A stretch of DNA of 64,000 nucleotides from an uncultured Anaerolineae bacterium (GTDB taxonomy: Bacteria; Chloroflexota; Anaerolineae; Aggregatilineales; UBA3940). A program made the position numbers and the translations under genes. Numbering within the stretch: position 1 is the stretch's first letter; each line of letters starts with the position of its first letter. The DNA lies in assembly GCA_964390105.1 (NCBI GenBank), contig CAYMGV010000001.1, forward strand, positions 66,002 to 130,001, given 5' to 3'. This document shows, one piece after another, positions 5,766 through 49,104 of the stretch. The notes below the pieces were generated by a model. That model saw nothing but the letters and a program-made list of their open reading frames with translations, did no database searches and was not told where the DNA came from.

Positions 5766-8411
5766 ATGACAAGAGAAATGCCTAAAACCTATGATTTCAA
5801 CGCCACTGAAGCCCGCCTGTACGAGTGGTGGGAATCGAGGGGCTACTTTAAGCCGGAGATTGCGGGGCCAGATGCCGAGCCGTTTGTGATCAGTATGCCG
5901 CCCCCTAACGTGACCGGCGCGCTGCACCAGGGGCACGCGCTGTTCGTGGCGTTGGAAGACCTCATGATCCGCCATGCCCGCATGAAAGGCCACGCGGCGC
6001 TGTGGGTGCCCGGCACCGATCATGCCGGTATCGCGACGCAGTTGCTCGTTGAGCGTATGCTGATCAACGAGGGCACCAGCCGCGAGGAAGTGGGCCGCGA
6101 GGAATTCCTGGAGCGTACATGGGAGTGGAAGCACGAAAAAGGCGGGCGCATCACGGAGCAGCTCCGCAGGCTTGGCGCAAGCTGCGACTGGGAGCGTGAA
6201 CGGTTCACACTCGATGAGGGCCTAAGCCGTGCCGTACGTGAGGCTTTTGTGCGCTGGTACGAAGCGGGCCTGATTTACCGTGACACCTACATGATCAACT
6301 GGTCGCCCAATTTGCAGACGGCGGTCAGTGACCTTGAAGTCGAGCGCGTGGAGCAGAACGGCAAACTGTACTACTTCAAGTACCGCATCGCAGGGGGGGA
6401 CGACTACCTGCCCGTGGCGACCACGCGACCCGAGACGATCCTCGGCGACACTGCCGTGGCCGTCAACCCCAATGACCTGCGCTACCAGGCGTTTATCGGT
6501 AAGATGGCGCTGGTGCCCGTACTCGACCGTGAAATCCCCGTGATCGCGGATGAGTATGTCGATATGGAATTCGGTACAGGTGCGCTCAAGATCACCCCGG
6601 CTCATGATCCCAACGACTACCAGATCGGGCTGAAGCACAACCTCGATATGATTACGATCATGAATAAGGACGCCACCATTAACGACCTGGGCGGGCCGTA
6701 CGCAGGCATGGATCGCTTTGCAGCTCGCAAGAAGCTATGGGCCGATATGGATGGCGCGGGACTGGTGATCAAGGCCGAGGACTACACCCACATCGTGCCG
6801 ATTGCCCAGCGCGGTGGCGAGTTGATCGAGCCGATGATCAGCACACAGTGGTTCGCGAGGATGAAGGGGCCAGCCGATATGGCGCTGGAGGCTGTTCACG
6901 ACGGCACCATGACCATCGTGCCCGACCACTTCAGCAAGGTCTGGGATCACTGGCTGGAAGACATCCATGACTGGTGTATCAGCCGTCAGTTGTGGTGGGG
7001 CCACCGCATCCCAGCCTGGCACTGTGCCGAGTGTGGCGAGGTCACCGTGTCACGCGAGGACCCGACCAAGTGCGCACACTGCGCCTCAACCCGCATTGAG
7101 CAGGACCCGGACGTGCTGGACACATGGTTTAGTTCGGGGTTGTGGCCGTTCAGCACGCTGGGCTGGCCCGATGAAACGCCCGACCTGAAACGCTACTTCC
7201 CGACGCATGTAATGGAAACGGGTTATGATATCCTGTTTTTTTGGGTGGCACGCATGGCGATGATGTCGCTCTCGCTGATGAAGGAAGCGCCGTTCGAGAC
7301 GATCTATCTGCACGGTCTTGTGAGGGATGAGCACGGCAAGAAGATGAGCAAGACCACCGGCAACGTAATCGACCCCATCGAAGTTATGAATGAGATGGGC
7401 ACCGACGCGCTGCGCTTCACCCTGCTGACGGGGTCCGCGCCGGGCAGTGACATGAACCTGTCCATAGACCGCATCGCATCGAACCGCAACTTTGCCAACA
7501 AGCTGTGGAATGCGGCACGCTTCCTCGTCGCAGCGCTGGATGAGGAGAAGCCGGGGGAGGCCCCCACGCTGGAGAGTCTGACCCTGCCGGACCGCTGGAT
7601 ACTCAGTGGCCTGCACAAGCTCATCGATAATGTAAACCGCCTGATGGAGAACCACCAGTATGGAGAGGCGGGTCGCCAAACCTACGACTTCTTCTGGAGC
7701 GAGTACGCGGACTGGTACATCGAGATCAGCAAGGTGGCGCTTTACGGGGAGGACAAGGACGCACGGGCACGCACGCTCAATATCCTGACTTACGTGCTCG
7801 ATCAAATCCTGCGACTGCTGCACCCTTATGTGCCGTATGTCACCGAGGAAATCTGGCAGCACATCCCGCATGAGGGTGAGGCCCTGATCATTGCGTCATG
7901 GCCGCAGTACGATGAGGCCTACATCGACAAGGACGCCGACCATGTCATGGGCCTGCTGATGGACCTGATTCGTGGCATCCGTAACGTACGCGCCGAGTAT
8001 GACGTGCAGCCGTCGCGCAAGGTCACGGCGCTGATCGCGGCAGGTGAGATGACCGAGACGTTCACCGCCAACCGCGCACAGTTCGAACGGCTGGCGAACA
8101 TTGACCTTGAAACACTGGAGATCGCGGAGACAGTCGAAGCGCCGGGGCAGGCCGCGGCAGTCGCCATCAGCAGCGGTATCAGCGCCTACCTGCCGCTGGC
8201 CGGGCTGATTGATCTCGAAGCAGAGAAGGTTCGCATCGAGAAGGAACTGGCTGAGGTGAGCGGGCGCATCGAGAAGACACAGATGCAGCTTGCCCACAAG
8301 GGGTTCGTTGCCAATGCCCCCGGGGCCATCGTACAGAGGGAGCGCGACAAGCTCGAAGACCTGCTGGCACAGCAATCCGCGCTTCGTGAGCGGCTCGAAG
8401 GACTGGGCTAA
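5766..8411 (+). CDS. valS: Valine--tRNA ligase
   Basis: 881-aa ORF with the class I HIGH-type motif (PPPNVTGALHQGHA), KMSKT (7342 region 'KMSKTTGNV'), a CP1 editing domain and a C-terminal coiled coil. Confidence 0.97.
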   Translation: MTREMPKTYDFNATEARLYEWWESRGYFKPEIAGPDAEPFVISMPPPNVTGALHQGHALFVALEDLMIRHARMKGHAALWVPGTDHAGIATQLLVERMLINEGTSREEVGREEFLERTWEWKHEKGGRITEQLRRLGASCDWERERFTLDEGLSRAVREAFVRWYEAGLIYRDTYMINWSPNLQTAVSDLEVERVEQNGKLYYFKYRIAGGDDYLPVATTRPETILGDTAVAVNPNDLRYQAFIGKMALVPVLDREIPVIADEYVDMEFGTGALKITPAHDPNDYQIGLKHNLDMITIMNKDATINDLGGPYAGMDRFAARKKLWADMDGAGLVIKAEDYTHIVPIAQRGGELIEPMISTQWFARMKGPADMALEAVHDGTMTIVPDHFSKVWDHWLEDIHDWCISRQLWWGHRIPAWHCAECGEVTVSREDPTKCAHCASTRIEQDPDVLDTWFSSGLWPFSTLGWPDETPDLKRYFPTHVMETGYDILFFWVARMAMMSLSLMKEAPFETIYLHGLVRDEHGKKMSKTTGNVIDPIEVMNEMGTDALRFTLLTGSAPGSDMNLSIDRIASNRNFANKLWNAARFLVAALDEEKPGEAPTLESLTLPDRWILSGLHKLIDNVNRLMENHQYGEAGRQTYDFFWSEYADWYIEISKVALYGEDKDARARTLNILTYVLDQILRLLHPYVPYVTEEIWQHIPHEGEALIIASWPQYDEAYIDKDADHVMGLLMDLIRGIRNVRAEYDVQPSRKVTALIAAGEMTETFTANRAQFERLANIDLETLEIAETVEAPGQAAAVAISSGISAYLPLAGLIDLEAEKVRIEKELAEVSGRIEKTQMQLAHKGFVANAPGAIVQRERDKLEDLLAQQSALRERLEGLG

Positions 8412-8533: not shown

Positions 8534-9283
8534 GTGGTTTATAATGGGCGCATTCGTTCAGAACTGGACAGGTTTTTCATGATGTTATCATCTGACAGTG
8601 ACACCATTCCTACCAACGATCACTCTCCCATCGACCCGCCGACTGACATCACCGTCACTGACCCTGAACCCGCGTGGAAACCTGGAATTGCCGATTCCGC
8701 CGGGTCAGCCGGGGACGGTTTCTTCAGCGATGCAACTGACAACGACCTGAAGGAAGCATGGGGTGTCATCCGGGAAATCCTCGAAACCGTTGCACTCGCC
8801 GTCGCGATCTGGCTGGTAGTCAACTTTGCCACGGCTCGTTACATCGTCATCGGAAACAGCATGCAGCCTAACCTTGAAACCGGTGAGTTTTTGCTGGTTA
8901 GCCGCCTGTCGTATCGCCTCGGTGAACCGGAGCGCGGCGATATTATCATCTTTGATTACCCCGGTAATCTCAGCGATGATTACGTCAAGCGCGTGATCGG
9001 CCTGCCGGGTGATGCGGTCAGCATCGACGGCAACAGGGTGATCGTCAACGGCGTGCAGTTGGATGAGCCATACATCGATGGGCCAACCAGCGGGGCAGGG
9101 CTGTGGCAGGTGCCCGAGGGGCACTACTTCGTACTGGGCGACAATCGAGGCGGCTCCAGCGATTCACGATCATGGGGGATGCTGGATGAAGAACACATCA
9201 TCGGGAAGGCGGTATTCTCGTACTGGCCGGTCAACCGGCTGGGCCTGATTCCGCATTATGATTATGACAACCTGGAAGAATAG
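8534..9283 (+). CDS. lepB: Signal peptidase I
   Basis: Catalytic Ser box 'GNSMQPNL', 'YVKRVIGLPGD' and 'GDNRGGSSDSRSWG'. The track start is a GTG at 8534. An ATG at 8579 (MMLSSDSD...) is an alternative start. Confidence 0.9.
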   Translation: MVYNGRIRSELDRFFMMLSSDSDTIPTNDHSPIDPPTDITVTDPEPAWKPGIADSAGSAGDGFFSDATDNDLKEAWGVIREILETVALAVAIWLVVNFATARYIVIGNSMQPNLETGEFLLVSRLSYRLGEPERGDIIIFDYPGNLSDDYVKRVIGLPGDAVSIDGNRVIVNGVQLDEPYIDGPTSGAGLWQVPEGHYFVLGDNRGGSSDSRSWGMLDEEHIIGKAVFSYWPVNRLGLIPHYDYDNLEE

Positions 9284-9294
9284 CAGAGGTCAAC

Positions 9295-9840
9295 ATGAAT
9301 GCATGGCATGATGTCGCAACCGGACCAGATTCCCCAAATCGCGTGTACGGGATCATTGAAATCCCTAAAGGCAGCCGTAATAAGTACGAGTACGACAAAG
9401 ACACCGGCCTGATGCGGCTCGACCGCGTGCTGTATTCCTCGCTGCATTACCCCGGTGACTACGGCCTGATCCCGCAGACCTACTACGACGACGGCGACCC
9501 GCTTGACATCCTCATAATGGGCAACGTCCCGACCTTTCCCGGCTGCCTGGTTGAAGCGATCCCCATCGGGTTGTTCCGCATGCTGGACCGTGGCGAACCA
9601 GACGATAAAATCCTCGCCATTCCCAGCGGTGACCCCTTCTTCAACGAGTACCGGGACCTTTCCGATATTCCATCACACTTTCTCGCTGAGGTGGCACACT
9701 TCTTCTCAGTCTATAAAGACCTTGAAGGCGCGCGGGTCGAACCGCTGGGCTGGGAGGGGGCTGACTTCGCGCGGGATCGAATCGTCCATGCCATGAAGTT
9801 CTATCAGCGCAAATTCGGGGCTAAGAAGGATAAGAAGTGA
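9295..9840 (+). CDS. ppa: Inorganic pyrophosphatase (family I)
   Basis: 181-aa ORF with 'IEIPKGSRNKYEYDKDTG', 'YPGDYGLIPQT', 'DGDPLD' and 'DDKILA', matching soluble PPase. Confidence 0.93.
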   Translation: MNAWHDVATGPDSPNRVYGIIEIPKGSRNKYEYDKDTGLMRLDRVLYSSLHYPGDYGLIPQTYYDDGDPLDILIMGNVPTFPGCLVEAIPIGLFRMLDRGEPDDKILAIPSGDPFFNEYRDLSDIPSHFLAEVAHFFSVYKDLEGARVEPLGWEGADFARDRIVHAMKFYQRKFGAKKDKK

Positions 9841-9921
9841 CGACCGGGTAGCGGCATTCTTAAGTCCGGGCTATGCTTTCCTCGTAACCAGGCGCACGGC
9901 ATCAGTTGACAGGGATGAAAA

Positions 9922-22648: not shown

Positions 22649-25198
22649 ATGATCCCCGTCAAACTTGAACTGACCAACTTCCTCGCCTATCGTAACCCGC
22701 TGCCCCTGGATTTCACCGGGCTGCACCTTGCGGTGCTGGTCGGCTCAAACGGCGCAGGGAAATCTTCACTGCTTGATGCGCTGACATGGGCACTGTGGGG
22801 CAAGGCGCGCACCACGCGTGACAACGACCTGATCCACACCGGTGAAACGGAAATGACGGTCCGGCTGGTCTTTTTGCTGGATCGTAACGAGTACCGGGTT
22901 ACACGCTATCGCTCCAGCAAGGGACGCGGACAAACAGCACTCTCGCTGGAAATCCGTGATGGCGACGCATGGCGCAATATCTCCGAGAACACGGTTCGGA
23001 CGACGCAGGGCACGCTGGACGTGCTGCTTAAACTTGATTATGACACCTTCATTAACTCCGCGTATCTTGTGCAGGGCCGCGCCGACGAATTCACCAGCAA
23101 AACCCCCGGCGAACGCAAGCGCATCCTTGGTGAAATACTGGGCCTGGAACGCTGGGCCGTGTTCGAGGAACGGGCCAGAACGCACATCAGGCAGATTGAT
23201 AACGAACGCGCACTCAATGAGACGCGCCTGGGCGATATTGATGAAGAACTGGGCCGTGAAGATGTGTATAAGGAGGCTTTGGCCGAGGCCGAGGCCGAAC
23301 TTGAACGGCTGACGGACGAACTCGAATTGATGGATGCCCACTACCGCGAGATGGAAGCCGAAAACCGTCGCCTTGAAGACCTGCGCCGCAACCAGCGGGA
23401 AGCCGGAAAAACGCTCGATGCAAACCAGGCCGAGATCGATTCAATCGCGGAGGAGCAGCGCCGCACCGAGGCTCGCCTGGCAGAGCTGGATGCGGTCATC
23501 GCACGGCGTGAGAGCATCGAGAAGGGCTTCGAGGCATACCAACAGGCCATCGAGCAGGATAAGCAACTAAATGAGCAGTATCGTCGTCAGAGTGAACTGC
23601 GCCAGCAGCAAGCCGACCTGCGACAGGCCATCACCGAGGCTCGCGCCGGGCTGGAAGCTCGCCTGAGCGCACTGAACCAGCAGGCGGGAACCCTGCAATC
23701 CACGCTGGATGAAGCCGGGGATGTCTCATTGTTCGAGGAGCGACAGGCGGAGTTTGAGGAATTGCAGGTACTTGAGGCGAATCTGACGACATGGCGTGAG
23801 GAACTCACGACCACCCGGCAGGCAGTCGCAGACCTCAACAGCGAGAACAGCGGGCTGAAGGCTAAGATGAATCCAATGGCAGAGCAGCGCGACACTCTGC
23901 AAAAAACAACGGAGCCGATTTGTCCAACCTGTGGACAGCCGTTATCGGAAGAAGATCGTGAAGCACTGATTGAACGATTGTTCCACGATGGTACGGAACT
24001 TGGCAATCAGCATCGCGCCAATACAGAGACGCTGCGACAACTAACTGATGACGTTATTGAGTTAGAAAAGAGTATCAAACAATCCGAACTGGAACTCAAA
24101 CAAATGCCCAGCCTGCAAAGCTGGCTCGATATGCAGAAAGACCGCATCGAGAAGGCCAGTGAGGCACAGCAGGCGCTTGCATCTGTGCAGGCAGAGATGG
24201 CAGAGGTCGAGGCTGCCATCCAGGATGGCAGTTTTGCCCCGGAGCTTACCACGAATCTGCACGAAGTCGAGGCAGCACTGGATAAGCTCGGCTACAGCGA
24301 GGAAACGCACCTTGCCGCCCAGAAACACATCGAGGACTTTAAGGATTTTGAGGAACTCAGCCGCACACTGGCCCTCGCGCTTGAGGAGGCCCCGCGCCGG
24401 CAGGAGGAGATCGATGGGCGCGCCGTGCGGCTGCAGCAGTGGGGAGAGCGTCAAGCCGAAATCCGGGAGCGTATGGCTGAGTGCGAGGCAGAGATCGCAC
24501 AGATCGAGGAAGCCCTGACCGATTTCGAATCATTCGGTCTTGAGGTCGCCCGCATGCGTGAGCAGAAAGCGCAGGCGGGCACCGAACTGGGTGTGGCGCG
24601 CCAGCGCCTCAACGCGCTCGACCAACAGCGCGACCGCCGCCTGGGCATCGAGGAGGCACAGGCCCAGCTTGCCGACGAGAAGGGCATTTACGAGGAACTG
24701 AGGGTGGCCTTCAGCAGAAACGGCATCCCTGCCATGATCATTGAGGCCGCCATCCCGGAGATTGAGAATGAGGCTAACCAGCTTCTGGCGGACCTGACCA
24801 ATGGCCGTATGCACGTCCGCTTTGATACCCAGCGTGACAACGTGACCGGCGGTGTCCGCGAGACGCTTGATATCAGAATCGCTGATGAACTGGGCACGCG
24901 TGACTACGAAACCTTCAGCGGGGGCGAGGCTTTCCGCGTCAACTTCGCCATCCGCCTGGCGCTCTCCAAAATGCTGGCTCGCCGTGCCGGGACGCGGCTC
25001 CGCACCCTGATTATAGATGAGGGTTTCGGCTCCCTGGATGAGCTGGGCCGCGACCGCCTGATCGAGTCGATCAATGCCATCCAGGATGACTTCGACCTGA
25101 TACTCGTTATCACCCATATCGATGAATTGAAGGACGCCTTTCCGGCCCGCATCGAGATCGTCAAAACAAGTTCCGGCGCGATGATCCAGGTTGCCTGA
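22649..25198 (+). CDS. SbcC/Rad50-like SMC-family ATPase with zinc hook
   Basis: 849 aa. Walker A 'GSNGAGKSSLLDAL', a long central coiled coil with a CxxC hook 'CPTCGQPL', signature 'FSGGEAFRVNFAIRLAL', Walker B 'LIIDEGFGSLD' and H-loop 'VITH'. No SbcD/Mre11 gene is adjacent. Confidence 0.85.
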   Translation: MIPVKLELTNFLAYRNPLPLDFTGLHLAVLVGSNGAGKSSLLDALTWALWGKARTTRDNDLIHTGETEMTVRLVFLLDRNEYRVTRYRSSKGRGQTALSLEIRDGDAWRNISENTVRTTQGTLDVLLKLDYDTFINSAYLVQGRADEFTSKTPGERKRILGEILGLERWAVFEERARTHIRQIDNERALNETRLGDIDEELGREDVYKEALAEAEAELERLTDELELMDAHYREMEAENRRLEDLRRNQREAGKTLDANQAEIDSIAEEQRRTEARLAELDAVIARRESIEKGFEAYQQAIEQDKQLNEQYRRQSELRQQQADLRQAITEARAGLEARLSALNQQAGTLQSTLDEAGDVSLFEERQAEFEELQVLEANLTTWREELTTTRQAVADLNSENSGLKAKMNPMAEQRDTLQKTTEPICPTCGQPLSEEDREALIERLFHDGTELGNQHRANTETLRQLTDDVIELEKSIKQSELELKQMPSLQSWLDMQKDRIEKASEAQQALASVQAEMAEVEAAIQDGSFAPELTTNLHEVEAALDKLGYSEETHLAAQKHIEDFKDFEELSRTLALALEEAPRRQEEIDGRAVRLQQWGERQAEIRERMAECEAEIAQIEEALTDFESFGLEVARMREQKAQAGTELGVARQRLNALDQQRDRRLGIEEAQAQLADEKGIYEELRVAFSRNGIPAMIIEAAIPEIENEANQLLADLTNGRMHVRFDTQRDNVTGGVRETLDIRIADELGTRDYETFSGGEAFRVNFAIRLALSKMLARRAGTRLRTLIIDEGFGSLDELGRDRLIESINAIQDDFDLILVITHIDELKDAFPARIEIVKTSSGAMIQVA

Positions 25199-42414: not shown

Positions 42415-44109
42415 TTACTCAAACCCATCGAAGCCCTCATCTCCGTAGAGCTTCTTACTGGCTTTTCCTGGCTTCCCGCCCGTTGACTTGCCTGTAATAG
42501 GTGCCCCCATCGCAGTATAGAACGCAGCATCATACGAGCGCGTTTTGATGACAACCGGCATCGGGACGGCATGACCAAGCACAATCGCCTGCTGACGTGT
42601 ATCGAGGCGGGCCAACACTTCACGCAGACCGGCAGCACCGCTAACCCCCATCAGCACCGCAGCGATGTCCTTATCATTGTCGAGCAGTGCCGTGACGCGC
42701 GTCCCGATCTGGGACATGACCTCCTCATCGATGGCACTGGGGCGCTGGTCCACGACCAGCAGCGTTACCTTAAACTTACGCAGTTCCCGCGCAATTGTGC
42801 CGAAGATGGTCTGATGCGCGATCTTCGGCTCCAGGAACTTATGAGCCTCCTCGATGGTGATCATGAGCTGCGGGGGTTCCTGCCCACCTTCACCCAGTGA
42901 CTTCTCGATACGGTCCACGTAGCGATTGCGAATGCGGCGCGTCAGGTAGTTGGCGACGAGGATGTAGGCATCGAGCGTGTTCCCGTACCGGCCAAACTCA
43001 AGGATCACGCTGATGCCGTTCTCGATATAGTTGAGAATTTCCTGCACAGCAGAATCGCCGGGTGAGTGTGGTACGAGGAAATCCCAGCGCCTGAAGCGCT
43101 CCAGCCGGCGGGTTAGCGCCGTTAGCGAAGCCCCGTTGATGGTGGTGTTCTCGGTCAGGTCATCGATGGTCGCACCGTCTGCCGTTAATAGCTGCTGAAT
43201 CCAGCCCTTGCCCCACATGCGGTACAGGTTCCACGCGGCATCGAGCATCGTATCGGAGATGTCCATGGTGTGTGCCACAGCGGCGAGGTCATCGGGTGAA
43301 ATCTCATCATAGCCAAGACGGACCACAAAATCAGGCCGTACGTTACGATTACGCGAGGATTCATCGTCCAGCGTGAAGATCGAGACCCTATCGGGAAACA
43401 ACTGCTTGAGGCCCTTATCCTTGCGCCCGGACTCGTTGATAACCTCCCATCCATAATCATTGTGCATATCAAACACCAGGCTGACGGCAGTCCCGCGCGA
43501 TATCGTACCGGCCAGCAGCACACGGGTCAGGTAGCTCTTGCCTGTACCGCTCTTGCCAAACACGCCCACTGAGCGTTCCGTCAGGCGTTTGAGGTCTACA
43601 TTGATCTGCGTATCCTGCAGTTCGAGCGGGCTGCCGATGTTGAAATGAGTCTCGTCCTCATGTCCGAATACGTCGTTGATATCCTGCTCGGTGGCCGTCC
43701 ACACCTCCTGGAAGTGCGCGGGGATGGTGCGCACGGGCAGGATTGTGCCGTCTTCCTGGATGATCAGCATCGGCACGATATGGACCGTACCGAAGGCTGT
43801 TGTGCCAGAATACACCTCGGCAATATATGGGTTGAGCTTCACATCGGGCGGTTTCTGCGTCAGCGCGAGATTGGTGCTGTTCAACCCAATATCGGTGATC
43901 ATGCAGAAGTAGCGCTGGCTGCGGCCATGCACCACCACGTACCGGCCCACGGCCAGTTCCTCGATGTCAGTGTCGCCGTCGAGTTTGACCTCAATCCCAC
44001 GCCCAAGCGAGCCGCCAACCACCACACCGAGGCGGGGGGAGCGCGGCCCGAAGTGCCTATCCAGTTCGCTGAGTCCGTTGTTCACCATCGCTTGGTTACT
44101 CACTCTCAT
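42415..44109 (-). CDS. HerA-like hexameric ATPase/translocase (DUF87, FtsK/HerA superfamily)
   Basis: 564 aa. N-terminal HAS-barrel-like segment 'RLGVVVGGSLGRGIEVKLD...VGRYVVVHG', Walker A 'GVFGKSGTGKSYL', Walker B 'QLMITIEEAHKFL' and 'LLVVDQRPSAID'. Confidence 0.82.
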   Translation of the reverse strand: MRVSNQAMVNNGLSELDRHFGPRSPRLGVVVGGSLGRGIEVKLDGDTDIEELAVGRYVVVHGRSQRYFCMITDIGLNSTNLALTQKPPDVKLNPYIAEVYSGTTAFGTVHIVPMLIIQEDGTILPVRTIPAHFQEVWTATEQDINDVFGHEDETHFNIGSPLELQDTQINVDLKRLTERSVGVFGKSGTGKSYLTRVLLAGTISRGTAVSLVFDMHNDYGWEVINESGRKDKGLKQLFPDRVSIFTLDDESSRNRNVRPDFVVRLGYDEISPDDLAAVAHTMDISDTMLDAAWNLYRMWGKGWIQQLLTADGATIDDLTENTTINGASLTALTRRLERFRRWDFLVPHSPGDSAVQEILNYIENGISVILEFGRYGNTLDAYILVANYLTRRIRNRYVDRIEKSLGEGGQEPPQLMITIEEAHKFLEPKIAHQTIFGTIARELRKFKVTLLVVDQRPSAIDEEVMSQIGTRVTALLDNDKDIAAVLMGVSGAAGLREVLARLDTRQQAIVLGHAVPMPVVIKTRSYDAAFYTAMGAPITGKSTGGKPGKASKKLYGDEGFDGFE

Positions 44110-44112
44110 TTA

Positions 44113-44727
44113 CTATGCGTTGTTGGGGTATATCAGGCGCAGCATGTAATCCAGCCGATCCATATCATTACTGAGCAGACGAGCAGCCTCACGGCCCGCA
44201 CTCACCAGGAAGGAATACTGGCGCTCCTCCGGCATCATCAGCGCCGTATTCAGCAGTGCCGATGCAAGTAACTGTTCACTCGGCACGCCAGGCGCACTGA
44301 GTACCATACGGAAGAAATCGAAACGGTGGCCGAGTACCTGGATGTGTTCACCTGGTGTACATACGTAGACCGGGTCAAGGCTGAGCGGCGGGCGTGGGGG
44401 CAGTGCGTGACGCACGCCCCCATCCGGCAGGCGGTAGCCAATGGCCAGCACACTCATCTCGACCGGTGCCAGCCGGTGATGATGCTGATCACGCACCATC
44501 TCATCGCTGATCGCCTCGGCCAGCACCAACTGGCGCACCAGCGGGTCATCATCAATATGGATGTCATACAGCAGGCCGTAGATCACGTCGCGAGTCTCAG
44601 CACGCGGCACGGCCTTCACTACGCTGCCAAACGCGGGCGCATCCAACTGCTGGACGCGCGCCCCGGCTGAAAAGCCGCTGGTGCTGGCGCGCAGCACACT
44701 CCCGATCGGTTCTTGCCAATCCATCAT
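44113..44727 (-). CDS. Hypothetical 204-aa protein, middle gene of the NurA/HerA operon
   Basis: The ORF is 3 nt upstream of the HerA-like gene and 18 nt downstream of the NurA-like gene. I recognised no family. The N-terminal 'PIGSVLRASTSGFSAGARVQQLDAPAFGSVVKAV' loosely resembles a HAS-barrel strand pattern. No TM segment or signal peptide. Confidence 0.6.
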   Translation of the reverse strand: MMDWQEPIGSVLRASTSGFSAGARVQQLDAPAFGSVVKAVPRAETRDVIYGLLYDIHIDDDPLVRQLVLAEAISDEMVRDQHHHRLAPVEMSVLAIGYRLPDGGVRHALPPRPPLSLDPVYVCTPGEHIQVLGHRFDFFRMVLSAPGVPSEQLLASALLNTALMMPEERQYSFLVSAGREAARLLSNDMDRLDYMLRLIYPNNA

Positions 44728-44745
44728 AGGGCTGCACTCACTTTG

Positions 44746-45990
44746 TTAATTGGTTTTTGCGGATGATGATTGGCCTGACTGATGACGGGTCTTGAGGCCA
44801 CGGGCGGCGTCCTTGCTGCCTGCCTTGGCACTCTGCCCCGGCAAAATGCCATGCCGTGTCATAGAAACACTGATCATCATATCGAGTTGGCGAGCTTCCT
44901 CGCGCTTAACGACCGCCAGTTCATCGGCGCGGGCCAGCACATAGGGATACCGGACCACCGTCTGTTGACACTGCTGCCACAACAGGCCCTGCACTTCGGC
45001 CACCAACTCGCGATTACGCATGGCCCACATCGGCATCTCAACACGGGCCAACACGGGGAAATCACCTTCGTGTGCGGCCACGTTCATATAAAAGAAGGCG
45101 ATCTCAAGCTCCTCACCGCCCTCCTGCCTGAACTCCTTGTTCTGCGGAGACATCTGCACGAAGATCGCGCTGCGCTGGCCCGGTTCGAGAAAGCGGCCAA
45201 ACACCTGGATATCGCGCACCCCTTCGATGCGGCCATTGGTAGCAAGGCTCCTGCGGGAAACGCTTTCCTCGTCAATATCCATCAAATGCAGCAAACTGAT
45301 CACAAAGCGCGAACGCGGGCGGTCGGTATAGCCAACCAATGCGGCCTGCACATCCATCAGACGCACCATGGCACTGAAGTACACCCGCCGAAGCTGTTCT
45401 CGGTCGGGCACGTCGGCACTCATCACGAACAGCAGTGGGCCGTCCAGCAGCGAGATCAGCGGGCGGGCCGCCCCGCGCTGTTTCCATGAGTTCTCAGTCA
45501 GGGCTTCCATCTCAGCCACGGTACGCCGCGCACTGATCACGGAGGATTTCACCATGCCGCGCCCCTCGGTTTGCAAGTAGCCTTCTTCGAAGAACAGGTA
45601 CGGCTGAGTGACGATCTCCGGTGGCGTTCCGCTGCCGTGGCTCAGTATGATAGTGCCCGTGTTCAGCAGATAATACAGCGATGAGCCGTGCGTATCAGGC
45701 AGTATCTGCGAGCCATCTGTGGCAATAATGGTCGCCGATTCCGGCAGCGGAGCCGGGTGATAGGCCGCCATGATCGGTTCATCCAGTGGCCGGGCACCAC
45801 GATAGCCCGCGTCCTTATCGATGGCATCCTGCACGCGGCGGTCAATTTCGGGGAGCCACGCCTCATCAGCATAGGCTTCCATGATCTTCAGGGCAAGGTC
45901 GGTCTTGTAGAACTCCTCGTCCTCTTTTGTCGCAATATATTCACCCATGCGGTCAACCTGCTCGGTGAGCTTGGCAAATTCCAGTGTCAT
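44746..45990 (-). CDS. NurA-like nuclease
   Basis: 414 aa. 'TIIATDGSQI' and 'LISLLDGPLLFV' match the two Asp-containing NurA motifs (xDGS / DG[SP]L). The size and operon partner (HerA-like) are consistent. Confidence 0.7.
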   Translation of the reverse strand: MTLEFAKLTEQVDRMGEYIATKEDEEFYKTDLALKIMEAYADEAWLPEIDRRVQDAIDKDAGYRGARPLDEPIMAAYHPAPLPESATIIATDGSQILPDTHGSSLYYLLNTGTIILSHGSGTPPEIVTQPYLFFEEGYLQTEGRGMVKSSVISARRTVAEMEALTENSWKQRGAARPLISLLDGPLLFVMSADVPDREQLRRVYFSAMVRLMDVQAALVGYTDRPRSRFVISLLHLMDIDEESVSRRSLATNGRIEGVRDIQVFGRFLEPGQRSAIFVQMSPQNKEFRQEGGEELEIAFFYMNVAAHEGDFPVLARVEMPMWAMRNRELVAEVQGLLWQQCQQTVVRYPYVLARADELAVVKREEARQLDMMISVSMTRHGILPGQSAKAGSKDAARGLKTRHQSGQSSSAKTN

Positions 45991-46145
45991 GGCATTCTCC
46001 AGCCGCTCAAGGCAATTATCCCCGGCATATTTCGTTCAGATGGCATAGTAGCACTTTCGTTCTAAACACGCAAATGAATCCGCCAAGCGTGATCAATGGT
46101 ACAATTCGAGCAGCAGTTCAACCCCTTGCCAGCCGGAGTAACATC

Positions 46146-47087
46146 ATGCGTCGGTATGTCTATACGGCCAGCATCTTCACCATCTATGTTTACATCATCC
46201 AGTTTGGGTTCATCCTGTTCAATCTATTCACAACCTCCAGTTCCGTGATGCCCACCCTACAGGAGTTCTTCCACTTCTACCGGCCTGATGCCATCTATTC
46301 CCACATCAACGTCGCGGCCCTGTTTATTGCAGCGGCGGCTTTGCTGGCATTCGACGAGAAGCGCTATACACTAACCGGTGTATTTGGCGTGGCGCTGCTG
46401 CTCTCGACCTCGCGTACCTCAATGATCGCGCTGATCCTGGGGGCCGCCGTCTACTTTTGGCTAAAAGGTGGTGTCAAGCTCATGCGCTTTGCGCCGGGAG
46501 TGGCCGTCATCGGTGCAGCGGGTGTGCTGGTCACCTTCCTGCGTGGTGGCTCCTCACGGATGATCTACTGGTCAGCGGGTATTGATCTGCTAAGACCAAC
46601 CCCATGGCTCGGCGTACCACGCGGCGCGATTCGCGAACTGATGTCGCCACTATCGCAGATTCACCTGCACAACCTTTACGTCCAAATGCTGGTGGAAAAC
46701 GGAATCGTGGGGCTGGTACTGCTGATTGCGGCGATCATCGTGGCATTTATCCTGATTTGGCGATATGCACCCGACCGCGCGCTGGCCGCCTCGATGTTCA
46801 CGCTGTTTGTCGGCGCGGGGCTGTTCGATTATCATTTCTTCTCATACCCGGCTGATATGATCTACATTGGCGCATTGATCGCCGCCTGGCAGAGCCAACC
46901 CGCCCGGTTTTACCGCGCCGACCCCTGGCTGCATTTGTTGGCTGCTGTCATCTCGTTCTTCGCATTTATCCCCGTCGAACGCATCGCGGCGTTTGGAATC
47001 TTCTGGCCTGTGCTGCAAACTGTGATTGTGCCGTTCGGCATCAAAATACGAGACCAGATACAAAACCTCGAATCGGCGGCGATATAA
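46146..47087 (+). CDS. O-antigen ligase/polymerase-like (Wzy_C-type) polytopic membrane protein
   Basis: At least 8 predicted TM helices and an 'LLLSTSRTSMIALILGAAVY' loop motif. The ATG at 46146 (MRRYVYTASIF...) is preferred. The track start at 45984 overlaps the NurA start. Confidence 0.65.
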   Translation: MRRYVYTASIFTIYVYIIQFGFILFNLFTTSSSVMPTLQEFFHFYRPDAIYSHINVAALFIAAAALLAFDEKRYTLTGVFGVALLLSTSRTSMIALILGAAVYFWLKGGVKLMRFAPGVAVIGAAGVLVTFLRGGSSRMIYWSAGIDLLRPTPWLGVPRGAIRELMSPLSQIHLHNLYVQMLVENGIVGLVLLIAAIIVAFILIWRYAPDRALAASMFTLFVGAGLFDYHFFSYPADMIYIGALIAAWQSQPARFYRADPWLHLLAAVISFFAFIPVERIAAFGIFWPVLQTVIVPFGIKIRDQIQNLESAAI

Positions 47088-47279
47088 GGGCACTCTCCGA
47101 GAGCCGTTCTCTCACAGAATTGCCCTGAATTTCGCGGTGACTGATGTGCTTCCATGGCCTAGCATTGTTTGCACCCATATTAGTGCCGATTATTTATACA
47201 AATCGGAACCTTTACTTTTTCAGGCATGCCGTGTACCATTAACTCAGAAGACGCCTTGGTTAAAAGGAGCAGAAGGGCC

Positions 47280-47870
47280 ATGCCAAAGGGAAGTGGAAAA
47301 GCCATCCCGAAAGTGGAAATGAACAAAGAGATCGCACTGAGACTTTTAGAAATCCTCAAAACACGCTTCAAAGAGAATATGAGGCGTCACGAAGGAATCG
47401 ACTGGGCTGATGTACAGGCCCGCATGGAGGCCAACCTCGGCAAACTGGCTTCGCTCAATGCGATGGAGCACACTGGTGGTGAACCCGACGTGGTTGACCA
47501 CGATCCATCCACAGGAGAATATTTGTTCTGCGATTGTTCCGCCCAAACCCCAGAGGGGCGCCGCAGCATCTGCTATGATGACCCCGCCGAACAGGAGCGC
47601 ATCAGGAAAGGCGTTAACCCCGGCGGCAATGCCGTTGCACTTGCCGAGGCTATGGGCATCGAACTCCTAAATGAGGAACAGTACCGCTATCTCCAAACGG
47701 TTGGCGAGTTTGATACCACCACGTCGAGCTGGATCAAAACACCCGAGGAGATCAGGAAACTCGGTGGGGGGCTTTTCGGGGATCGCCGGTACGGTACCGT
47801 GTTCATCTATCACAATGGCGCACAGTCATTCTACTCCGCGCGGGGTTTCCGGGGTGTACTGCGAGTCTGA
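47280..47870 (+). CDS. DUF4256-like protein
   Basis: 'LLEILKTRFKENMRRHEGIDWADVQARMEAN...LNAMEHTGGEPDVV...WIKTPEEIRKLGGGLFGDRRYG' matches my recollection of DUF4256. The start is ambiguous (47226, 47280 or 47319). Confidence 0.6.
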   Translation: MPKGSGKAIPKVEMNKEIALRLLEILKTRFKENMRRHEGIDWADVQARMEANLGKLASLNAMEHTGGEPDVVDHDPSTGEYLFCDCSAQTPEGRRSICYDDPAEQERIRKGVNPGGNAVALAEAMGIELLNEEQYRYLQTVGEFDTTTSSWIKTPEEIRKLGGGLFGDRRYGTVFIYHNGAQSFYSARGFRGVLRV

Positions 47871-47878
47871 AAGCACTT

Positions 47879-48961
47879 ATGAGCCAAGACACGAACGACA
47901 ACACCGATATCACCATCCAGGATCAGATCACGCTTTCCGACGTGGATGCCATGCTGCGTGCCGGGCAGATCGCAAACGACTATGCACAAAGCACCGTCTT
48001 CAGTGATTACCACATCCGGCGTTCAGATAATACCCTGCGCCGCCAGTTAGGGGACCTGCGCCTGTTTGCGTTATTTCTTAATAATGCAGGTTTGCGCCTC
48101 AACGGGGACACCCTGCAAATCAGCCCCGAGGCATGGCGCGGCGTGACCTGGGGAATCATTGAGGGATTCAAGCGTTGGATGTTGACCGAAGGCTACGCGG
48201 TGGGCAGCATCAATGTGAGGCTGTCCACCATCAAGACCTATGCGCGCCTGGCGGTGAAGGCTGGCACGATCACAGCCGAAGAAGGACTTCGTATCAAAGG
48301 GGTCAACGGCTTTAGCCACCAGGAGAAGCGTAAGGTCGATCAAAAACGTACCGTGACGCGTGTCGGGGAAAAGAAGGCGCAGCCCGTCCGCATTACGACC
48401 GAGGTCTACCGGAAGCTGATCGCAGGACAGCCCAAAACCCCACAGGGCCGACGTGATACACTGATGTTGTGCCTCCTGCTTGAACACGGGCTGCGCGTCG
48501 GTGAAGTGGCCGGTTTGGCGGTCGATGATATTGACCTCAACCGTGGCGTACTGCACTTCTTCCGAGAGAAGGTTGGTAAACAGCAAGTGCACACCTTGAC
48601 GGCCAACACGTACCGGGCCGTGTCCTTCTACCTCGAAACGGAAGGTGCGCCACAGGGTGGCTATCTGCTGCGGGCCAGCTATCGCGGCGGCCACCTCGCG
48701 CCATCCTCCGGCATGACCAAACGTGCTATCAACAAGCGTATCCGGCTGCTGGGCCGGCGCATGGGCATTGACGGTATGAGCCCCCATGACTGTCGCCACT
48801 TCTGGGCTACCCGTGCCGCACGTTCCGGCACCGATACATTTGCATTACAGGAGGCCGGTGGCTGGAACAGCCTCGCGATGCCGCGCCGCTACGTCGAGGA
48901 ATCGTCAGTGGCAAACCAGGGTGTGATGGGCTTTAATACTGTTGATGACAAAAACGAGTGA
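47879..48961 (+). CDS. Tyrosine-type site-specific recombinase/integrase
   Basis: 360 aa. Catalytic-domain motifs 'LLLEHGLRVGEVAGLAVDDID' (Arg I), 'SPHDCRHFWATRAA' (H-x-x-R) and 'GGWNSLAMPRRYVE' (catalytic Tyr). It ends 58 nt before tRNA-Leu. Confidence 0.85.
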   Translation: MSQDTNDNTDITIQDQITLSDVDAMLRAGQIANDYAQSTVFSDYHIRRSDNTLRRQLGDLRLFALFLNNAGLRLNGDTLQISPEAWRGVTWGIIEGFKRWMLTEGYAVGSINVRLSTIKTYARLAVKAGTITAEEGLRIKGVNGFSHQEKRKVDQKRTVTRVGEKKAQPVRITTEVYRKLIAGQPKTPQGRRDTLMLCLLLEHGLRVGEVAGLAVDDIDLNRGVLHFFREKVGKQQVHTLTANTYRAVSFYLETEGAPQGGYLLRASYRGGHLAPSSGMTKRAINKRIRLLGRRMGIDGMSPHDCRHFWATRAARSGTDTFALQEAGGWNSLAMPRRYVEESSVANQGVMGFNTVDDKNE

Positions 48962-48976
48962 ATCGCGCCGTTTACC

Positions 48977-49004
48977 TTGACAATCCGGCCCGGTGCGGTA
49001 CAAT
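48977..49004 (+). promoter_or_regulatory. Near-consensus sigma-70 promoter for tRNA-Leu
   Basis: TTGACA (48977-82), a 16-nt spacer, then TACAAT (48999-49004). The tRNA starts at 49020. Confidence 0.7.
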
Positions 49005-49019
49005 TTCACTTCGATGCAC

Positions 49020-49104
<85 letters not shown>

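Follow-up and report, generated by a model that had tools for sequence, protein, structure and literature searches.

A minus-strand operon in DNA of an uncultured Anaerolineae bacterium (contig CAYMGV010000001.1, positions 66,002 to 130,001; this stretch of 64,000 nucleotides (nt) is called the window, and positions are counted from its first letter) encodes a NurA-family nuclease, a protein of 204 amino acids designated ORF204, and a HerA-type ATPase. We found that the locus is a chromosomal, vertically inherited NurA-HerA operon typical of Anaerolineae. The three-gene NurA/HAS-barrel/HerA arrangement is lineage-wide, and it is neither a novel defence system nor a new class of machine. With modest confidence we consider ORF204 to be an additional, third component of a NurA-HerA machine with a housekeeping role, in which it would act through NurA.

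Organisation of the operon

nurA (44746..45990, minus strand) codes for 414 residues and was assigned by Pfam, a model made with AlphaFold2 (AF2), Foldseek and residue conservation. A spacer of 18 nt (44728..44745, minus strand), read directly from the sequence, separates its stop codon TAA from the start codon ATG of ORF204 (44113..44727, minus strand). AF2 and Foldseek identify ORF204 as a HAS-barrel protein standing on its own, similar to the N-terminus of HerA but lacking an ATPase. It is followed after 3 nt, with the junction TAG-TAA-ATG, by herA (42415..44109, minus strand), which encodes a 564-residue ATPase of the FtsK/HerA superfamily with its own N-terminal HAS barrel, as judged from Pfam, PADLOC and NCBIfam models and from sequence matches in the PDB. 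The original prediction, made from the letters of the DNA, had described three packed minus-strand genes with gaps of 18 and 3 nt, which agrees with the list of open reading frames and with both junctions. Positions 42415-45990 form a single uninterrupted frame of 3576 nt or 1192 codons, in which stop codons alone divide the three genes. Inside the operon, signals for promoters or terminators did not rise above chance.

Fold and conservation of ORF204

The AF2 model of ORF204 was computed from 18 homologues and reached a predicted local distance difference test score (pLDDT) of 87.2 and a predicted template modelling score (pTM) of 0.84. In it a beta-barrel (residues ~9-122) precedes a bundle of five helices (~125-199). 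In a Foldseek comparison with the PDB 50 of the 50 listed matches were HerA chains from at least six systems, with a best E-value of 8.5e-7 and a probability of 1.00. The ~140 columns that align represent the N-terminal HAS-barrel region of HerA. Among the matches were DUF4297-HerA, T. kodakarensis HerA-NurA, SIR2-HerA, TdpA and S. solfataricus HerA, the best being the HAS regions of the DUF4297-HerA and SIR2-HerA chains.

Sequence comparison yielded a signal near noise. ORF204 scored 12.8 bits against the HAS-barrel model of Pfam, where the gathering score is 25.2 (E 0.13); E-values below 1 were obtained with three of 18 family members, the best being 0.036, and neither sequence nor profile searches of the PDB with ORF204 returned a match. 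The middle gene had been predicted to be conserved and to have no recognisable domain. The conservation was borne out, while the domain can be recognised by its fold. One NCBI record already calls an ORF204 orthologue a 'HAS-barrel domain-containing protein'.

Residues 9-122 of the model adopt the barrel of PF09378, the domain that crowns HerA and the alpha and beta subunits of F1-ATPase at the N-terminus. In contrast to these, ORF204 presents it as a separate polypeptide of ~200 residues with a helical bundle, without a P-loop domain and with a sequence below the threshold of the family. Because it has 204 residues, neither a Walker motif nor a match to DUF87, and belongs to a family of uniformly ~200 residues, ORF204 is not a HerA. 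An hhalign comparison of its profile with that of the HerA from the same operon gave an E-value of 0.037, with ORF204 25-59 placed on HerA 46-77 in the correct register. We rejected a recent duplication of the HerA N-terminus as the source of ORF204 because the profile-profile similarity was merely at this level. Judged by its modelled fold, ORF204 is an old, diverged HAS-barrel protein.

Two motifs are invariant in ORF204, I-D-D-D-P-L-V-R-Q (58-66) and L-P-P-R-P-P (109-114). D60 and D61 were present in 74 of 74 sequences, and about 30 residues were at least 95% conserved in the 74 orthologues. In the AF2 model DDDP-LVRQ maps to a loop and the first helix of the barrel. The family comprises 2,239 clusters at 90% identity and 722 at 50%, nearly all of them standalone proteins of ~200 residues. 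Two database 'proteins', P0218 (434 residues) and P0224 (341 residues), join the C-terminus of NurA to ORF204. They were discarded as natural fusions; their linkers are garbled and of low complexity, which indicates frameshift, assembly or sequencing artefacts. P0193 also looks chimeric and is unusable as evidence of fusion. A likeness of motifs between NurA ('LLHL..IDEE') and ORF204 ('GLLYDIHIDDD') was dismissed as chance since it does not occur in the NurA family consensus and the hhalign probability was <1%.

NurA and HerA

The 414-residue protein matched the Pfam NurA family (PF09376) over model positions 2-254 of 254 with an E-value of 9.8e-25 and 87.9 bits at a cut-off of 21. Its AF2 model (pLDDT 92.5, pTM 0.87) has a helical hairpin at the N-terminus (~5-58), then an RNase H-like core, and ends in a disordered tail (402-414). 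The best Foldseek matches in the PDB were four solved NurAs with E-values from 1e-10 to 9e-7, namely S. solfataricus 2ygk, which was the best at 1e-10, T. kodakarensis NurA, T. maritima 1zup and D. radiodurans 7f6d_G. They were followed by Argonaute PIWI and EndoV from the broader RNase H-like group. A sequence search of the PDB with NurA had no match; the similarity to the solved NurAs was seen by fold comparison alone. D92, E160, D183, R316, K389 and K393 were invariant or at least 95% conserved in 47-73 orthologues, which carry the NCBI name 'DNA double-strand break repair nuclease NurA'. From motif position, D92/E160/D183 are probably equivalent to catalytic residues such as D53 of drNurA (PMC9960219).

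The 564-residue protein matched DUF87 (PF01935) with an E-value of 9.4e-25. The HAS-barrel model PF09378 aligned from ~residues 27-77 onward with an E-value of 2.4e-4 and 21.6 bits, slightly below the cut-off of 25.2, and it is annotated on most HerA orthologues. In 47-73 orthologues Walker A (185-192, with G188-K191-S192), Walker B (414-423, with E420/E421) and R456 were at least 95% conserved. Sequence matches of HerA in the PDB were all HerAs, from SIR2-HerA, T. kodakarensis and S. solfataricus. The original prediction had assigned the first protein to NurA by 'IIATDGSQI' and 'SLLDGPLLF' and the last to HerA by 'GKSGTGKS' and 'MITIEEAH'. All four motifs were found, containing D92, D183, K191 and E420/E421, respectively, and profile searches uphold both assignments, with a full-length match above the curated cut-off and an agreeing fold for NurA and with the DUF87/HerA and HAS-barrel matches for HerA. 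With conservation of at least 95% in the catalytic residues and in the motifs of the ATPase, NurA and HerA both look like active enzymes.

HerA matched the HerA models of PADLOC with an E-value of 2e-32 and those of NCBIfam with 1.7e-23 (HerA_antiphage 3e-23). Yet it remained below every equivalog cut-off of NCBIfam, with 60-83 bits versus 800-970 for HerA_Thermprot, helicase_HerA, HerA_antiphage and HerA_antiphage_2. Models of archaeal repair HerAs and of anti-phage HerAs scored equally on it (~82 bits). By these sequence scores the HerA of the window is a distinct HerA clade, as far from the archaeal repair group as from the anti-phage group.

Distribution, gene order and co-divergence

Occurrence was counted in GTDB contigs with one genome per species, and gene order was determined in 80 fetched loci. 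The ORF204 family was present in at least 519 species-level genomes. All 80 loci were labelled Chloroflexota and came from Anaerolineae, Aggregatilineales, Thermoflexus, Ardenticatenia and Caldilineaceae. nurA was located immediately upstream of the ORF204 homologue in 77 of them, covering several orders of Anaerolineae, while the remaining three ended at a contig edge. The gap in the 77 loci was usually between -4 and ~50 nt, i.e. up to 50 nt or an overlap of 4 nt. herA was found downstream of the ORF204 homologue in 52 of the 80 loci. The distance between these two genes was at most 90 nt in 31 of 55 measured loci and 0.5-2.6 kb with inserted genes in 21; in the window and its closest 20 relatives it was 1-30 nt. 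Within the triplet, nurA and ORF204 are thus the most tightly linked genes.

The gene order in the cultured species Aggregatilinea lenta (GCA_003569045.1, BFCB01000001.1 positions 409340-431055) is nurA, ORF204, a GT87 glycosyltransferase and herA. In Aggregatilineales and related orders such a GT87-family membrane glycosyltransferase (~1.1-1.4 kb, on either strand) recurs as an insert that separates herA from the ORF204 homologue, e.g. at 8541-9902 of locus L085 (Aggregatilinea lenta), in L087, L026, L033 and others, and explains gaps of ~1.2 kb in ~15 loci. Pfam assigns GT87 in L085 and L087; the other inserts would belong to the same family by their like size and position. Locus L087, from an Aggregatilineaceae metagenome-assembled genome (MAG), is also a rare instance of an interrupted nurA-ORF204 junction, with two 59-residue PDDEXK_3 fragments of an apparently disrupted nuclease gene at 7716-8101. 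Another genome of Aggregatilineales (L086) carries a herA of the same clade on its own. In one locus without an adjacent herA (L024, 8615-10072) the gene 3' of the ORF204 homologue starts with 'FISYRR', a motif reminiscent of TIR domains.

Mean pairwise identities in 41 three-gene loci were 0.48 for NurA, 0.55 for ORF204 and 0.63 for HerA. ORF204 was more conserved than NurA at every level of divergence and exceeded HerA at the deepest level, where its identity was 0.43. The divergences of the three proteins were correlated with rho values of 0.86-0.92. The triplet is also retained around distant family members in one MAG labelled Armatimonadota and in one unlabelled contig. The identities, the correlation and the kept gene order indicate that ORF204 is strongly constrained and co-inherited with its neighbours. 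Separately, in deep Chloroflexota loci (L064-L079, e.g. L065, L072 and L079) NurA and HerA were 30-36% and the ORF204 homologue 45-52% identical to the proteins of the window; at this long range the middle protein evolves slowest of the triplet.

These data bear on the view that ORF204 is an unrelated passenger of the nurA-herA operon or the decaying remnant of a HerA duplication. Such an origin could account for a HAS-barrel similarity at noise level, and it was counted in its favour that the function of ORF204 is a prediction only. On the other hand, a passenger would hardly have the ~30 conserved residues and a mean identity above that of NurA, nor keep its place after nurA across orders and in the Armatimonadota-labelled MAG, and the predicted fold is both confident and specific for HerA. 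A constraint of this kind would not persist on a decaying remnant. We thus judge this explanation very improbable.

Role of ORF204

In every complex that has been solved or mapped, NurA is docked on HerA at its HAS-barrel face (PMC3326311, PMC9960219, PMC12977600). Deletion of the HAS domain abolishes the NurA-HerA complex of Sulfolobus (PMC3326311), and an acidic patch on the HAS barrel of D. radiodurans HerA (D78/E80/D81) is required for NurA binding (PMC9960219). The 2.8-Å cryo-electron microscopy (cryo-EM) structure from T. kodakarensis shows that NurA touches the alpha1 helices of HerA and the loops preceding them (PMC12977600). A partnership of ORF204 with NurA is suggested by three features: ORF204 represents the NurA-docking domain in free form, it is genetically tied to nurA even where herA has drifted off, and its invariant motif corresponds to the NurA-contacting element of solved HerAs. 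In the last of these the DDDP motif would be the NurA-contacting element as mapped by secondary-structure order alone.

By homology with the archaeal and Deinococcus complexes, a HerA hexamer would translocate double-stranded DNA (dsDNA) into a NurA dimer, and the dimer would cut the incoming DNA in the course of end resection or of linear-DNA degradation. ORF204 would bind the NurA dimer, probably via the invariant loop-helix IDDDPLVRQ, and could serve as an adaptor or regulator of NurA. It might pre-assemble NurA, hold it until HerA engages, or form an extra tier of HAS barrels that separates NurA from the HerA ring.

Several points weigh against ORF204 as a NurA-directed subunit. We infer the contact between NurA and ORF204, its stoichiometry and the cellular role, be it repair and recombination or degradation of foreign linear DNA, and what bacterial NurA-HerA does in the cell is itself a matter of dispute (PMC9960219, PMC12977600). 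The HerA of the window already has a conserved HAS barrel (D73, L76, T79), which leaves the need for a second one unexplained, and the partner of ORF204 might be HerA or DNA rather than NurA. No herA was found inside 8 kb in 17 loci whose flanks extend over at least 5 kb. Finally, the gene of a distant family member, P0247 (209 residues), is situated away from nurA and herA (L082, 3755-6421; GCA_964575355.1, CAZNQP010000032.1). It directly follows a candidate defence pair of PADLOC, HEC-01A (AAA_15/21 ATPase, E 4.5e-138) and HEC-01B (DUF4276, E 1.8e-43). This context was the sole one of its kind that we saw, and here the HAS-barrel protein may have been recruited to another system.

If HerA were the main partner, ORF204 would stack on the HAS ring or intercalate with it as a cap, loader or assembly chaperone and gate the entry of DNA or the formation of the hexamer, while NurA would bind HerA directly as in two-gene systems. 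The shared fold of ORF204 and the HerA N-terminus is consistent with this, since HAS and F1-type barrels are ring-forming crowns (Iyer et al. 2004, as cited in PMC3326311). The short ORF204-herA spacing in the window and its closest relatives and the correlated divergence of the two proteins (rho 0.86) point in the same direction. Yet the linkage to herA is far looser than that to nurA, with inserts in 21 of 55 loci in addition to the 17 loci where herA is missing nearby. Moreover, removal of the HAS domain left the oligomeric state of Sulfolobus HerA unchanged (PMC3326311). We regard HerA as an unlikely main target of ORF204.

A tentative proposal, which we consider less likely than not, is that ORF204 represents a so far unrecognised class of ATPase-less subunits made of a HAS barrel only, which would give rise to a three-tier assembly. 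ORF204 could be a second HAS ring placed between the motor HerA and the NurA dimer, or a mimic of HerA. The mimic would occupy the NurA docking face and license the nuclease only once the real motor arrives.

Chromosomal context

The window contains housekeeping genes, including those of DnaE, two phosphofructokinases, ValRS and SelB, and its guanine-plus-cytosine content is even and unremarkable. Downstream of herA are genes for DUF4349, a 2-hydroxyacid dehydrogenase, a CoA-transferase and an ADP-ribosylglycohydrolase. In 10-13 of the ~20 closest species this flank keeps synteny with the triplet, and metabolic or housekeeping neighbours were also seen at the loci of relatives.

On the other side a variable islet of ~3 kb (45984-49104) separates the nurA start from a tRNA-Leu(CAG) gene at the edge of the islet (49020-49104, plus strand). 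The islet carries genes for a Wzy_C/O-antigen-ligase-like membrane protein (45984-47087), a DUF4256 protein (47226-47870) and a tyrosine integrase ~2 kb from the operon (47879-48961); the places of integrase and tRNA-Leu are those given in the original prediction. Because most relatives are without these genes and the tRNA-Leu(CAG) is just ~100 bp from nurA in locus L009, the integrase islet is variable cargo, a separate insertion beside the operon. An orthologue of the integrase with 64-65% identity was found at the equivalent position in L010 and L016. The islet is located on the 5' side of the tRNA, unlike a classical 3'-end attachment site, and no att-like direct repeats were found around it.

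Linkage of mre11/rad50 (sbcD/sbcC) to herA-nurA was absent in the window, where the neighbours are the DUF4349, 2-hydroxyacid dehydrogenase, Wzy-like, DUF4256 and integrase genes. As the original prediction had stated, the only SbcC-like gene is ~17 kb away from the operon (22649-25198); it codes for an ATPase of 849 residues with AAA_23, SMC_N and SbcC_Walker_B matches. It has no obvious SbcD/Mre11 neighbour; the genes on its two sides encode a phosphofructokinase paralogue and a tetratricopeptide-repeat (TPR) protein.

The triplet had been put forward as a possible defence module, and by analogy with known systems HerA might be a scaffold that activates a NurA effector, with ORF204 as sensor or regulator. 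The matches of HerA to PADLOC and to HerA_antiphage are in line with this, as is the presence of TdpAB, in which a HerA-like ATPase is paired with a NurA-like nuclease, among the structural matches. For archaeal HerA-NurA, destruction of foreign dsDNA has been suggested as a role (PMC12977600). The distant ORF204-like gene next to the HEC-01 pair and the integrase close to the operon may be added. However, NurA and ORF204 matched no PADLOC model, and the HerA scores are generic, 82 bits against equivalog cut-offs of 800-850 bits and no better than with the models of archaeal repair HerAs. The wide occurrence in one lineage, the lockstep divergence and the syntenic flank are unlike patchy mobile systems; base composition is ordinary, neighbours are metabolic or housekeeping genes in the window and in relatives, and viral contigs of IMG/VR contained no relative of ORF204. 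The integrase islet is outside of the operon and missing in most relatives. Taken together, a defence role of the triplet appears quite improbable. The neighbourhood comparison thus confirmed that the triplet is conserved across the lineage, while its flank is that of a syntenic chromosomal locus and not of a defence island.

Comparison with known HerA systems

Bacterial NurA-HerA had been described as barely studied. This does not hold, because crystal structures of HerA, a cryo-EM structure of the NurA-HerA complex and biochemistry from D. radiodurans (PMC9960219) as well as genetics of nurA-hepA from Thermus (PMC5448004) are published. The Deinococcus radiodurans genes DR_0836/DR_0837 and Thermus thermophilus nurA-hepA are likewise chromosomal, with nurA preceding herA, metabolic neighbours and no adjacent Mre11/Rad50 (PMC5448004). 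Bacterial nurA-herA pairs normally lack such neighbours, as in Thermus, and their absence next to the operon of the window is therefore unexceptional (PMC5448004). The RNase H-like fold of NurA is shared, with 7f6d_G among the best matches, as is a HerA composed of HAS barrel and ATPase. An N-terminal extension of NurA is present in both the protein of the window and Dra NurA (PMC12977600). The same mechanism would be expected, in which a hexamer of HerA passes DNA on to a NurA dimer docked at the HAS face (PMC9960219). The Deinococcus and Thermus systems consist of two genes, whereas the operon of the window has a third conserved gene between nurA and herA; in Thermus nurA's stop codon and hepA's start codon overlap, which leaves no room for a middle gene (PMC5448004). 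In sequence the proteins are far removed: NurA had no match in the PDB at this level, and D. radiodurans HerA was absent from the PDB matches of the window HerA at E <= 1e-3.

The archaeal Mre11-Rad50-HerA-NurA operon is made up of the same NurA and HerA families, and the best structural match of the window NurA is the S. solfataricus enzyme. Docking of NurA via the HAS domain of HerA is also shared (PMC3326311, PMC12977600). The operon of the window differs by the lack of linked mre11/rad50, by its score of 76-83 bits with archaeal HerA equivalogs versus 800-970, and by the extra HAS-barrel gene.

SIR2-HerA/Nezha, DUF4297-HerA and TdpAB likewise contain a hexameric ATPase of the HerA family, the N-terminal face of which binds the effector. 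In these HerA-scaffold anti-phage systems the effector is SIR2 or DUF4297 as opposed to NurA here, and they consist of two genes without a standalone HAS-barrel protein. Their patchy, mobile pattern contrasts with the lineage-wide vertical inheritance of the operon described here.

Significance

A full-text literature search, which did not include Iyer et al. 2004, found no paper on a three-gene NurA-HerA system or on a standalone HAS-barrel partner. In archaea NurA-HerA is well known as a machine for processing DNA ends, but studies in bacteria cover the two-gene versions of Deinococcus and Thermus only. That a whole bacterial class keeps the strongly constrained ORF204 gene next to nurA hints at a layer of assembly or regulation yet to be studied. 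A cultured host, Aggregatilinea lenta, carries the system, which makes the proposed partnership of ORF204 and NurA via the DDDP loop-helix testable. Either of the tentative roles of ORF204, as a second HAS ring or as a mimic of HerA, would if true represent a new regulatory principle for HerA-coupled nucleases, and it could bear on the function of bacterial NurA-HerA and on the control of effectors in HerA-scaffold defence.

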